Shown one piece after another: positions 1,869 through 5,679 of a stretch of DNA of 56,700 nucleotides. A model generated the notes under the pieces. It saw only the letters and a list, made by a program, of their open reading frames with translations. It did not search any database and was not told where the DNA came from. A program made the translations under genes and the position numbers. The stretch is from Escherichia coli (GTDB lineage Bacteria > Pseudomonadota > Gammaproteobacteria > Enterobacterales > Enterobacteriaceae): the NCBI RefSeq assembly GCF_003334255.1, contig NZ_QOWU01000034.1. One strand, given 5' to 3'. Each line of letters begins with the position of its first letter. Position 1 is the stretch's first letter.

Positions 1869-2468
1869 ATGAAACAGAGCCATTTTTTTGCCCATCTCTC
1901 CCGCCTGAAACTCATTAACCGCTGGCCGCTCATGCGCAACGTGCGGACGGAAAATGTGTCCGAACACAGTTTGCAGGTAGCGATGGTCGCCCATGCGCTG
2001 GCAGCTATCAAAAATCGAAAATTTGGCGGTAATGTCAACGCCGAACGTATCGCTTTACTGGCGATGTACCACGATGCCTCAGAAGTGCTCACCGGCGATC
2101 TCCCTACTCCGGTGAAATACTTCAATTCGCAAATCGCTCAGGAGTACAAGGCTATTGAAAAAATCGCTCAGCAAAAACTGGTCGATATGGTTCCGGAAGA
2201 GCTGCGGGATATCTTTGCGCCGTTAATTGACGAGCATGCATATAGCGATGAAGAAAAATCGCTGGTGAAACAGGCAGATGCACTGTGTGCATATCTGAAA
2301 TGTCTGGAAGAACTCGCGGCCGGAAATAATGAATTCTTGCTGGCAAAAACGCGACTGGAAGCGACGCTTGAAGCGCGTCGCAGCCAGGAGATGGACTACT
2401 TCATGGAAATATTTGTTCCCAGCTTCCATCTTTCGCTCGATGAGATTAGCCAGGATTCACCGCTGTAA
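1869..2468 (+). CDS. yfbR: HD-domain 5'-deoxynucleotidase YfbR
   Basis: 199-aa ORF with HD-domain metal-binding residues (SEHS...HD); recognised as YfbR. Confidence 0.9.
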
Positions 2469-2475
2469 GCAGCCG

Positions 2476-2520
2476 GAGTCTGCGTCGCATCAGGCAATAA
2501 GCGCCGGATGCGACATCAGG
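2476..2520. repeat. REP-like palindromic element between convergent yfbR and yfbS
   Basis: Inverted repeat tgcgtcgcatcaggc...gccggatgcgaca, typical of enterobacterial REP sequences; sits between two convergent stop codons. Confidence 0.6.
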
Positions 2521-2526
2521 CTCTTG

Positions 2527-4359
2527 TCAAAACGGAAACAGCATCGGGATCATCACCACACAAACCGCCATCACGATAATGGTGAACGGTACCCCCAACT
2601 TCACAAAGTCACTGAAGCTGTAATTTCCCGGACCTAAAACCAGTGTGTTAACAGGTGAAGAAACCGGTGTCATAAAGGCGGCGGATGCTGCCATCGCCAC
2701 GACCATCGCGAATGGATAAGGCGACACCCCCATCGTTTTGGCAGCAGCCAGCGCAATCGGAGCCATCAACACCGCCGTCGCGGTATTAGAGATAAATAGC
2801 CCAATAACCGCCGACAAGACAAACAAACACCCCAGCATCATATGTGGCCCGTAACCACCGCCAATGTCCATCAGCCCTTTCACCGCCAGCGCGACACCTC
2901 CCGTTTTCTGTAATGCCACAGCAAACGGCATCATCCCAACGATCAAAATAATGCTCGGCCAGTGAATGGATTTATAGGCGCTTTCAGCATCTATACAGCG
3001 GAATTTCCCCATCAGCAGGCAGGCGATGATAGCGGCAACAGGATTAGGAATTTCATCTGTCAGCATTAACGCCACCATTAGCACCAGACAGAAAATGGCA
3101 TGGGGTGCCTGGCTGTGCGCGGGTGATGCTTCACTCACCTCTTCCGGTAAGTTCAGCGCTACGAAGTCGCGGCCCTGTTTGGCCAGCATACCGATCAGTT
3201 TCCAGTTACCCACAACCAGGATGATATCGCCCAGCAGCAGAGGCTCATCCGCCAGCGAACCTTCCAGCGCCACGCCATTGCGCTTTAGCCCCACCACATT
3301 CAGTCCGTAGCGGGTACGAAAACCAATTTCGCGCACCGATTTACCAATCAGTTCTGACTCAGGAATTAATGAAATCTCTGCCATGCCCACATCAAGGGCC
3401 TGGTCAGAAAAATACTCGCCGCGCAGTACCATCGGCTCCAGCAATTGCTCACTACAAAATTGCCGGAGATCGACATCAGCCGCAGACATATCAATAAGCA
3501 AAACGTCACGCGCGCGAAATTCAGAAACCCCATTAACGTTCACGATAACGCGACGAAAACGCCGCCAGCGTTCAACACCGATGACGTTAGCGCCATAACG
3601 CTCACGTAATTTGAGATCATCCAGCCGTTGACCAATCATTGGCGATCCGGGGCGAATAGCCAGACGTCGCGCACGCCCGGTCAGTCGATATTCACGGATA
3701 AGATCGCGAAAGGTTCGACGCGTCCAGCCTTCGCGCTGCGGGGTCTGGGTATCCCCTTTCAGCATGAAACGCATCACTAACATATACAAAATACCCAGCA
3801 CCAGCACGACCAGGCCAATAGGTGTTACGCTAAAGAAACTGAAGCCGTGATAGCCTTCACGCAGCAATTCACTGTTGACTACCAGGTTCGGCGGCGTCGC
3901 CACCAGCGTCATCATGCCGCTAATCAGCCCGGCAAAACTTAACGGCATCATCAGACGTGACGGCGACGTTTGCATACGCATGGCAACGCTTAACACCACG
4001 GGAATAAAGATAGCGACAACGCCGGTTGAACTCATAAACGCGCCAAGCCCCGCGACGGTCAGCATCAACAAAACCAACATTTTGATTTCACTATTGCCCG
4101 CAACTTTGACCAGCCATGTTCCCATTACGGTGGCAACACCGGTACGGACCAAACCATCGCCAATAATAAACAAGGCGGCAATCAGGACAACGTTAGGATC
4201 AGAAAAGCCGGAAAATACTTCTGGGACTGTCAGCGTTCCGCTTAATGCAAACGCGACAATAACAAACAAAGCGACCGCATCCATACGCACTCTGCCCGTC
4301 GCAAACAAGACGATGGCAACGGCCAGTAATGAAAGAACCCAAATCAATTCACCGTTCAC
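2527..4359 (-). CDS. yfbS: Putative anion transporter YfbS (permease with two internal TrkA-C/RCK_C-like domains)
   Basis: 610-aa ORF, hydrophobic N- and C-terminal halves separated by a soluble central region with two repeated RCK_C-like segments; recognised as YfbS. Confidence 0.88.
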
Positions 4360-4402
4360 AACTTATCCTTGTTAATTGAGGGGGATGACTTGATTCTGCC
4401 AT

Positions 4403-4427
4403 AAAAAAGCCCCGACGAGACGGGGCT
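4403..4427 (-). terminator. Rho-independent terminator downstream of yfbT
   Basis: Minus-strand reading gives agccccgtctcgtcggggct followed by a T-run (plus strand aaaaaagccccgacgagacggggct). Confidence 0.65.
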
Positions 4428-4445
4428 AAATCATGATCAGGTGTT

Positions 4446-5096
4446 TCACTGAATAATAACATCGCCATTTGGCTGTTTGGTCACAGTAATTTGCTCCAGA
4501 CTGTGGAGGACCAAATCGACCTCATTCAGGCGCGGGGTATCTGCCGGAGCGTTAACCGCAATGACATGACAACCCGCCGCCAGGCCAGAAAGCACGCCAG
4601 CGGGAGCATCTTCCACCACCACACACTCCTGCGGCGCAAGCCCCAGCAGCTGCGCGCCTAACAGATACGCATCAGGTTCTGGTTTTCCGCGCTTCACTCG
4701 CTCAGCGGTTACAAACACCTCTGGTGCGGGAAGCCCAGCTATTTTATGGCGCGCTCGCGCTACCGGCATGGAGCCAGAAGTCACAATGGCCCACGGAATA
4801 CCTGCTTTATTCAAATGACTGAGTAAGGCGATTGCCCCCGGAAGCGCGGTAATACCTTCGGTTTCCGTGGCCTCGATGTGCTCCAGACGCGTAAACTCGG
4901 CGGCAATATCAGCCTCGGATTTGCCCGCCATAAAATGGCGCAGAGAGGTGATCGCCTGTTTACCGTGAATGAAAGCCAGCACCTCTTCCGGCGCTAACCC
5001 ATGACGTCTGGCCCAGTTGCTCCACGCCCGTTCTACCGCAGGCAGGGAATCCACCAGCGTTCCATCAAGATCAAACAGAAAACCTTTGCACCGCAC
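4446..5096 (-). CDS. yfbT: HAD-family sugar phosphatase YfbT (HxpA)
   Basis: HAD motif I DxDGTL (FLFDLDGTLVDS) near the N-terminus; start trimmed to GTG at 5094-5096 (216 aa) to match the remembered N-terminus, track ORF starts 6 codons upstream at ATG 5114. Confidence 0.85.
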   Translation of the reverse strand: MRCKGFLFDLDGTLVDSLPAVERAWSNWARRHGLAPEEVLAFIHGKQAITSLRHFMAGKSEADIAAEFTRLEHIEATETEGITALPGAIALLSHLNKAGIPWAIVTSGSMPVARARHKIAGLPAPEVFVTAERVKRGKPEPDAYLLGAQLLGLAPQECVVVEDAPAGVLSGLAAGCHVIAVNAPADTPRLNEVDLVLHSLEQITVTKQPNGDVIIQ

Positions 5097-5106
5097 GCGG
5101 GCCTCC

Positions 5107-5679
<573 letters not shown>

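Follow-up and report, generated by a model that had tools for sequence, protein, structure and literature searches.

YfbS of Escherichia coli: a putative SLC13-type elevator carrier with a tandem pair of RCK_C domains between its membrane halves

Introduction

In carriers of the SLC13 (DASS) family, transmembrane (TM) helices TM1-4 and TM7-9 form a scaffold and the rest of the protein forms a mobile core, with TM2-6 making up the N-terminal half of the molecule and TM7-11 the C-terminal half. Structural work on NaS1 and NaDC1 revealed that serine and threonine residues at the hairpin tips bind the substrate, that the segments L5 and L10 complete the sites, and that the asparagine residues in the first and second Ser-Asn-Thr (SNT) motifs bind the sodium ions Na1 and Na2, respectively. 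NaS1 differs from the carboxylate carriers at two positions, as it contains Ser260 in L5 and Asn533 in L10 where VcINDY contains Pro201 and Thr421, respectively. In NaDC1, a small molecule that ties the scaffold to the core inhibits the carrier, indicating that the interface between these parts is a workable control point. Here we describe how these systems compare with YfbS, the product of the yfbS gene located at positions 2,527 to 4,359 of a 56,700-nucleotide stretch of Escherichia coli DNA (NCBI RefSeq assembly GCF_003334255.1, contig NZ_QOWU01000034.1; hereafter, the window).

A second relevant carrier is AspT, a member of the AAE family (AspT/YidE/YbjL) whose structures have been deposited as PDB entries 8XW5, 9VDC and 9OQY. 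AspT is built from two inverted repeats with hairpins, has periplasmic termini, and contains a cytoplasmic soluble domain that is formed by two similar α/β subdomains. Its T-domain ends at residue 201 and its S-domain spans residues 210-357; the latter rotates by 9.5 degrees between states, and its first subdomain forms a dimer interface of 687 Å². AspT is a precursor/product exchanger for which no Na+ density was observed. The authors of that work left the function of the S-domain open and noted that no other transporter in the PDB has a domain of this kind.

Soluble domains of the RCK_C type (TrkA_C in Pfam) are present in KtrA/KtrC, KhtT, BusR, MthK and GsuK, in which they dimerize and relay the binding of ligands (cyclic di-AMP (c-di-AMP), Ca2+ or nucleotides) to a channel, an antiporter or a repressor. 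They have also been described in algal proteins that resemble SLC13 carriers. Chlamydomonas SAC1, which is regarded as a putative sulfur-sensing protein, is SLC13-like, contains two TrkA-C domains in its central intracellular loop and has bacterial homologs (PMC8780407), and Chlamydomonas SLT1-3 are described as SAC1-like sulfate transporters in which three or four TrkA-C domains occupy the central loop.

Results

YfbS consists of two hydrophobic halves, residues 1-205 and 411-610 (mean Kyte-Doolittle values of 1.22 and 1.16, respectively), that flank a hydrophilic segment, residues 206-410 (-0.18), in which 32 lysine and arginine residues are found. A Pfam search assigns CitMHS (PF03600, ion-transporter clan) to residues 16-544 (E=8.6e-85), with a further match at 496-607, and identifies TrkA_C (PF02080) twice in the central segment (Table 1). 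Internal alignments reveal that both parts of the protein are duplicated: the N- and C-terminal halves share 26% identity (E=4e-6), which points to an inverted repeat, and the two TrkA_C modules align to one another with an E-value of 9e-7. Judged by these alignments, both duplications are beyond chance.

The membrane part of YfbS is predicted to adopt the elevator fold of the DASS/SLC13 carriers and is closest to VcINDY. When the single YfbS sequence is compared to proteins of known structure, VcINDY is the best match (8e-21), followed by NaCT, NaDC1, NaS1 and Pho90. A family profile derived from 100 diverse YfbS homologs (alignment A1) was searched against the sequences in the PDB and yields the same leading match, with 179 bits for VcINDY (E=1.5e-51), 115-127 bits for NaDC3, NaCT and NaDC1, and ~100 bits for Drosophila INDY and NaS1; lower scores were obtained for DiT1 (70 bits), Pho90 (63), LaINDY (50) and ArsB (33). 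An AlphaFold2 (AF2) model computed from the alignment of the 100 homologs has a mean predicted local distance difference test (pLDDT) score of 91.3 and a predicted TM-score (pTM) of 0.87, and Foldseek matches it to VcINDY, NaS1, NaCT and Pho90 with E-values down to 7e-13 and target-normalized TM-scores of 0.7-0.77. In the model, each half starts with two TM helices followed by a broken helix; a helical hairpin, a second broken helix and a final TM helix come next, giving 10 TM helices and two hairpins. The hairpin helices comprise residues 91-106/111-128 and 505-520/525-543, and the second broken helices comprise residues 133-147/156-167 and 547-559/569-578, with breaks at 148-155 and 560-568. 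YfbS would have the membrane fold of VcINDY, NaDC1, NaDC3, NaCT and NaS1, with inverted repeats that contain a pair of re-entrant hairpins and a pair of broken helices. There are differences as well: its best Pfam match is CitMHS; it has 10 TM helices in the model, whereas SLC13 carriers have 11, and appears to be without their extra N-terminal TM1; and it contains an RCK_C insert between the TM6 and TM7 equivalents, which the solved carriers do not have.

The central insert was studied using a profile built from 66 diverse loci, which matches the C-lobes of RCK proteins only. The portion of the profile that covers module 1 matches KhtT (2e-8) and BusR, and the portion that covers module 2 matches KtrC (2.9e-11), MthK (~1e-8), KtrA and GsuK. 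When the central region is predicted alone, the AF2 model has a pLDDT of 87.7 and contains two β-rich modules, and in a Foldseek search all 34 PDB hits with E<=1e-3 are either RCK domains or the AspT S-domain. No RCK_N lobe (the TrkA_N Rossmann domain) was found in YfbS by Pfam, and the insert has room for two C-lobes only. YfbS therefore has the RCK_C fold and sequence motifs of the KtrA/KtrC, KhtT, BusR, MthK and GsuK proteins, but differs from them in that a carrier polypeptide without the RCK_N lobe contains two fused copies in tandem. A preliminary description of the window, made from its letters, had portrayed YfbS as a 610-residue protein with hydrophobic transport halves around a central region, and the hydropathy profile, Pfam matches and internal repeat bear this out. 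The two TrkA-C-like repeats that it placed in the center are likewise confirmed by Pfam, by their alignment to one another and by the profile matches to PDB entries, although the region measures ~205 residues and not the ~180 that were estimated. The absence of an RCK_C fold from this region had been named beforehand as what would refute that account; the sequence profiles and the AF2 model of the central domain, whose only matches are RCK/RCK_C domains and the AspT soluble domain, support the fold instead.

The insert of YfbS is assigned to the cytoplasm and both of its termini to the periplasm, because the insert and several short loops are basic and the positive-inside rule places such segments in the cytoplasm. 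Among the loops defined by the sequence and the AF2 helices, 22-25 (RVR), 128-135 and 452-454 are basic, whereas 41-54 and 435-438 are neutral or acidic. The same orientation was determined experimentally for AspT. Mapped onto the scaffold and core layout of the SLC13 carriers, the RCK_C insert would link TM6, with which the core part of repeat 1 ends, to TM7, the helix that opens the scaffold part of repeat 2. The likeness to AspT extends to this TM6-TM7-type connectivity of the soluble domain, to the plan of 10 TM helices and two hairpins, and to the soluble domain itself, as the central domain of YfbS aligns to the AspT S-domain over ~180 columns that include both modules (TMq 0.46-0.47). 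In contrast, the TM-score between full-length YfbS and AspT is only ~0.2, YfbS has no Pfam match to Asp-Al_Ex, and AspT is absent from the results of the family-profile search of PDB sequences. YfbS shares its plan with the AAE family but is not a member of it.

The sites that bind substrate and ions in DASS carriers were located in YfbS through a HMMER alignment to VcINDY and the internal repeat alignment, and residue frequencies were taken from the 100 homologs (Table 1). Asn158 and Pro565 are invariant in this set. At the tip of the second hairpin (HPout), Ser524, Asn525 and Thr526 are conserved in 90, 94 and 80 homologs, respectively; at the tip of the first hairpin (HPin), position 111 is serine in 66 and asparagine in 28. 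Features that YfbS has in common with VcINDY and other SLC13/DASS carriers are the SNT motif in HPout, the helix breaks (T-P-P-N and S-P-x-N in YfbS) and the family signature at residues 558-574. The transport machinery is conserved in these alignments, with a second Na+ site that is canonical in appearance and a first that is without its asparagine. Because serine replaces asparagine at the Na1 site, YfbS probably has one canonical Na+ site fewer. At the two proposed selectivity positions YfbS is VcINDY-like and not NaS1-like, as position 156 is proline (74 of the 100 homologs) and position 568 is a serine (serine or threonine in 86), which leans weakly toward carboxylates. Residues 558-574 match the PROSITE pattern for sodium:sulfate symporters (PS01271). 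The pattern is matched by 56 of the 100 homologs and is also fitted by VcINDY, and hence is not specific for sulfate. The commonest pair of hairpin tips is SST with SNT (59 of 100), and the family may comprise subgroups that differ in their ion coupling or substrate. We also observed that the first tip reads SNT in ~15% of the homologs, and that a minority pair combines NNI or NNV with SNA at the second tip.

The architecture of YfbS is ordinary and widespread, and the combination of CitMHS/SLC13 with two RCK_C domains is already present in public annotation. An exhaustive search of 1.84 billion protein representatives returned 15,891 homologs with E-values of 1e-3 or lower, and for 2,495 the E-value was at or below 1e-30. 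The matches are mostly ~600 residues long and align end to end, and the family comprises ~2,500 clusters at 50% identity. An initial word-indexed search had returned only orthologs with at least 91% identity and no informative names. Within the Proteobacteria, family loci are found in Enterobacterales, Pasteurellaceae, Pseudomonas/Stutzerimonas, and the alpha-, beta- and deltaproteobacteria; elsewhere they occur in Verrucomicrobia, Planctomycetes, Actinobacteria, Firmicutes, Chloroflexi and Bacteroidales, and AFDB50, in which the names are automatic only, adds archaea. A larger subclass (~785 residues) is represented by the homolog P0171, which has four TrkA_C domains instead of two between its membrane halves, and by ~25 other proteins of 780-790 residues. 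Compared by published description, SAC1 and the SLT proteins are like YfbS in being SLC13-like carriers with central TrkA-C domains, and the four-domain subclass extends the likeness to SLT. They differ in that the algal proteins are eukaryotic and tied to sulfur acclimation, and in that the binding-site residues of YfbS are VcINDY-like rather than NaS1-like.

YfbS from the window is 100% identical to the E. coli K-12 yfbS product WP_001012899.1, which RefSeq labels 'SLC13 family permease', and the limits of its coding sequence (CDS) are the same as in strain MG1655. The GTG start is sound, because a Shine-Dalgarno sequence lies upstream of it (Table 1) and distant homologs align end to end beginning at residues 1-3. 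A megablast search with positions 2400-4500 of the window found yfbS in all 5,426 of 5,426 complete E. coli genomes, always on the chromosome and always as a single copy; it is a core gene of the species. Query coverage falls below 80% in one of these genomes. Two shortened E. coli-type variants also occur in public data: P0121 (484 residues) matches residues 1-365 with 100% identity, followed by a second matching stretch, and P0090 (578 residues) is 95% identical. Internal deletions or frameshifts in certain isolates would probably account for both.

Table 1. Positions in the window of yfbS, its signals and the segments of its product (AF2, AlphaFold2; ORF, open reading frame).
Feature	Position	Strand	Description and basis
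yfbS CDS	2527..4359	(-)	610 codons plus TGA stop (2527-2529); GTG start (4357-4359); ORF list, RefSeq identity
C-terminal membrane half, residues 413-610 (predicted repeat 2)	2530..3123	(-)	TM7-TM11 equivalents, hairpin HPout (505-543); AF2; best-matching stretch to VcINDY 281-448
Putative sodium:sulfate symporter signature, residues 558-574	2638..2688	(-)	Regex match; aligned to VcINDY 'ascafmlpvatppnaiv'
L10, S567-S568-P569-V570-N571			
HPout tip S524-N525-T526	2782..2790	(-)	Canonical SNT, Na2/substrate site in DASS carriers; aligned to VcINDY 'fasntas'
Central cytoplasmic region, residues 206-412	3124..3744	(-)	Basic linker and tandem RCK_C modules; composition, separate AF2 model, Foldseek
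TrkA_C/RCK_C module 2, residues 326-394	3178..3384	(-)	PF02080, E=4.8e-11; profile matches KtrC, MthK, KtrA RCK_C
TrkA_C/RCK_C module 1, residues 232-297	3469..3666	(-)	PF02080, E=8.7e-9; profile matches KhtT, BusR RCK_C
N-terminal membrane half, residues 1-205 (predicted repeat 1)	3745..4359	(-)	AF2 secondary structure; homologous to C half; matches Pho90, DiT1, LaINDY N halves
Contents of N-terminal half			Two TM helices, broken helix, re-entrant hairpin HPin (91-128), broken TM5a/b (133-167), TM6 equivalent (179-199)
L5 break A154-T155-P156-P157-N158	3886..3897 (T155-N158)	(-)	Equivalent to VcINDY S200-P201-P202-N203 ('tlvgsppnai')
HPin tip S110-S111-T112	4024..4032	(-)	First SNT position of DASS carriers, Na1 Asn replaced by Ser; repeat alignment, family profile
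Shine-Dalgarno AAGGA	4366..4370	(-)	7 nt upstream of GTG; read from sequence; AGGA/GGGA kept in enteric alignment
Intrinsic terminator of hxpA/yfbT	4402..4427	(-)	Stem AGCCCCG/CGGGGCT (7 pairs, 6 G-C) and T-run; between hxpA stop and yfbS start

The local gene order is alaA(+), yfbR(+), yfbS(-), hxpA/yfbT(-), yfbU(-), yfbV(-), ackA(+) and pta(+), in which yfbR is annotated as a 5'-deoxynucleotidase and hxpA (hexitol phosphatase), the current name of yfbT, as a sugar-alcohol phosphatase. The spacer between hxpA and yfbS is 86 nt in length, ~48 nt of which separate an intrinsic terminator from the yfbS start codon. This hairpin is a genuine hxpA terminator, because it is kept in 8 enteric loci with compensatory stem substitutions between genera and is absent from the one locus that lacks hxpA (L006). 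Although it lies outside yfbS, it bears on how the gene is transcribed. No sigma-70 promoter was found in the spacer. A sigma-54 promoter, suggested by the response of yfbS to PspF, was considered and rejected, as no TGGCAC-N5-TTGCW element occurs upstream of yfbS within 3 mismatches; across the window, matches to this element are fewer than expected by chance. A riboswitch or leader in the spacer was also rejected, as the best Rfam match reaches 20.9 bits where the gathering score is 70, and is driven by the terminator.

The published mentions of yfbS that were found all come from omics work. The protein has been detected by proteomics, and it is down-regulated by lignocellulose inhibitors; yfbS is increased 2.7-fold upon PspF overproduction and is decreased in intracellular uropathogenic E. 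coli. Oxygen limitation induces yfbS and yfbU 3- to 7-fold in Dickeya and Pectobacterium, not in E. coli (PMC3349551). This joint induction hints at read-through co-transcription with yfbU (positions 5107-5601 of the window) in the two genera despite the terminator. In the portions of their text available to us, omics papers label yfbS a 'sulfate transporter' or 'cation transporter / virulence' and give no supporting data there. Our literature search found no functional study of yfbS, or of proteins that combine TrkA-C with SLC13, DASS with TrkA, or CitMHS with TrkA.

Gene context was compared at 80 loci from many phyla, using tblastn with the E. coli neighbors and de novo clustering of 539 neighboring ORFs. 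Homologs of alaA, yfbR, hxpA, yfbU, yfbV and ackA flank yfbS at only 9-10 of the 80 loci, all of which are from Enterobacterales; tblastn found no yfbR- or hxpA-type neighbors at the loci from Pasteurellaceae, Pseudomonas, alpha- and betaproteobacteria, Bacteroidales and other groups. The clustering revealed no neighbor family that is shared across lineages, and the tightly linked genes on the same strand are mutually unrelated, encoding RNase HII, MogA, an AbgT transporter, an arginine-ornithine antiporter, a thioredoxin-like protein, a radical SAM enzyme and a K+/H+ antiporter. Conserved context was therefore rejected as a clue to the substrate, as the synteny is lineage-specific. The K+/H+ antiporter (L073:7918-9438, + strand; NF003716, 549 bits) is encoded in a Bacteroidales metagenome-assembled genome 49 nt downstream of the yfbS homolog on the same strand and ends in a TrkA_C domain, such that two RCK_C-bearing carriers lie side by side in this one lineage.

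Discussion

The present analysis shows which gene this is, its fold and domains, the logic of its topology, the conservation of its motifs and the lack of a conserved gene context. We infer for YfbS transport itself, the class of its substrate, its coupling ion and its regulation by the RCK_C pair, and we propose, with the evidence about evenly balanced, that it is a cation-coupled elevator carrier for divalent anions whose movement is modulated by the RCK_C domains. YfbS would be a secondary transporter of the inner membrane with a DASS/SLC13 fold (ion-transporter superfamily), in which each inverted repeat contributes five TM helices and a re-entrant hairpin. A mobile core formed by the hairpins and the equivalents of TM5/6 and TM10/11 would move past a static scaffold, taking along a small anion and the cation coupled to it. 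The substrate would most likely be a divalent anion taken up together with a cation, and a VcINDY-like site for di- or tricarboxylates is favored over a NaS1-like sulfate site because the binding-site residues and the profile scores are nearer to VcINDY than to NaS1. The RCK_C tandem, located between the equivalents of TM6 in the core and TM7 in the scaffold, would span a junction that must move during transport; a signal from the cytoplasm may lead it to set or modulate the rate of transport, and it may also contribute a dimer contact. Such modulation is suggested by the point of insertion, by the connectivity and rotation of the AspT S-domain, and by the precedent of the NaDC1 inhibitor.

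Several observations weigh against this proposal. The searched literature contains no transport, binding or phenotype data for YfbS or its close homologs, and the proteins of this architecture that have been studied, the algal SAC1 and SLT proteins, are linked to sulfate and not to carboxylates. The SST sequence of the HPin tip, where DASS carriers have SNT, makes canonical two-Na+ coupling doubtful. The NCBIfam model for the DASS family, TIGR00785, gives YfbS 144.1 bits, which is below its cut-off of 198.6, so YfbS is a divergent relative and not a core DASS member. Connectivity is the only basis on which the RCK_C pair has been placed with respect to scaffold and core, the near-invariant residues of the modules (S239/S335, D285/D378, G377, G384 and W386) constitute a generic TrkA_C structural motif that reveals no ligand pocket, and no regulatory role has been demonstrated for the S-domain in AspT. 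The preliminary description had spoken of ligand-gated transport. The site of insertion keeps this idea plausible, but no ligand is known, the conserved residues are the canonical TrkA_C motifs, and the domain in AspT has been assigned only a dimer contact.

The same carrier could instead use its tandem RCK_C domains in a purely structural manner, as a cytoplasmic platform that dimerizes or stabilizes the repeats and protomers with neither a ligand nor gating. We consider this doubtful, although a good deal is in keeping with it: the first soluble subdomain of AspT forms the 687 Å² dimer interface, the work on AspT identified neither a ligand nor a regulatory role, the conserved module positions in YfbS are canonical fold-forming residues, and the nucleotide-binding RCK_N lobe is absent. 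The best-documented ligand of isolated RCK_C dimers is c-di-AMP, and E. coli is not known to synthesize it; for this reason c-di-AMP, which was considered as a ligand of YfbS since the RCK_C domains of KhtT, BusR and KtrA bind it, was rejected. Against a purely structural role, RCK_C domains are regulatory elsewhere (KtrA/C, KhtT, BusR and MthK), most DASS carriers dimerize via the scaffold and without such a module, and the variant of the family with four copies is easier to explain by tuned regulation than by dimerization. A bolder form of the regulatory proposal, which we advance tentatively, is that the insert serves to clamp the elevator movement under the control of a ligand, in the YfbS family and, convergently, in AspT, YidE and YbjL, with a signal in E. 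coli that would be other than c-di-AMP.

With respect to substrate, YfbS could be a carrier for an inorganic oxyanion (sulfate, thiosulfate or similar) and thus the bacterial counterpart of SAC1 and SLT. The published descriptions of these proteins, the putative sodium:sulfate symporter signature, the match of Pho90 to the N-terminal half of YfbS, and the label 'sulfate transporter' in one transcriptome paper, whose available part gives no evidence for it, are in its favor. However, SAC1 and SLT are likened to YfbS by description, and the Na+/sulfate activity of SLT itself 'needs to be verified'. The signature fits VcINDY equally, Pro156 and Ser568 resemble VcINDY and not the serine and asparagine of NaS1, the profile scores rank VcINDY and the NaDC proteins above NaS1 and Pho90, and there are no cys or sulfur genes among the neighbors at the 80 loci; on balance an oxyanion substrate seems unlikely. 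It is far less probable still that, as has been suggested for Chlamydomonas SAC1, the main role of YfbS is to report the external or internal level of an anion as a sensor ('transceptor') rather than to transport in bulk. SAC1 has the same architecture by description, but the transport motifs at the hairpin tips and in the broken helices show strong conservation in the 100 diverse homologs, no kinase or regulator gene adjoins yfbS as a conserved partner in any lineage examined, and RCK_C is without a known output function of its own. The least credible alternative is that YfbS works with yfbR and hxpA in moving a compound related to nucleotides or sugar phosphates. The preliminary description, which correctly named yfbT as a sugar phosphatase and yfbR as a deoxynucleotidase, had hinted at such a context, and the three genes are indeed adjacent in E. 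coli; in Dickeya and Pectobacterium, moreover, low oxygen raises yfbS and yfbU in parallel. The hint reflects local synteny only: the adjacency is restricted to Enterobacterales, yfbR lies on the opposite strand, a covarying terminator separates hxpA from yfbS, locus L006 keeps yfbS without hxpA, and the substrates known for the DASS fold are small anions, di- and trivalent.

As yfbS is already catalogued in E. coli, the present finding adds little beyond pointing at a gap: thousands of bacterial and archaeal carriers, along with algal SAC1 and SLT, share this layout, and none has a defined pair of substrate and regulator. If the insert does prove to be a ligand-operated clamp, it would represent a general and so far undescribed mode of regulating elevator transporters, and the family would consist of metabolite- or ion-gated carriers. 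For learning what this family transports, and the role that tandem RCK_C domains play in elevator transporters, YfbS from E. coli would offer a convenient system.

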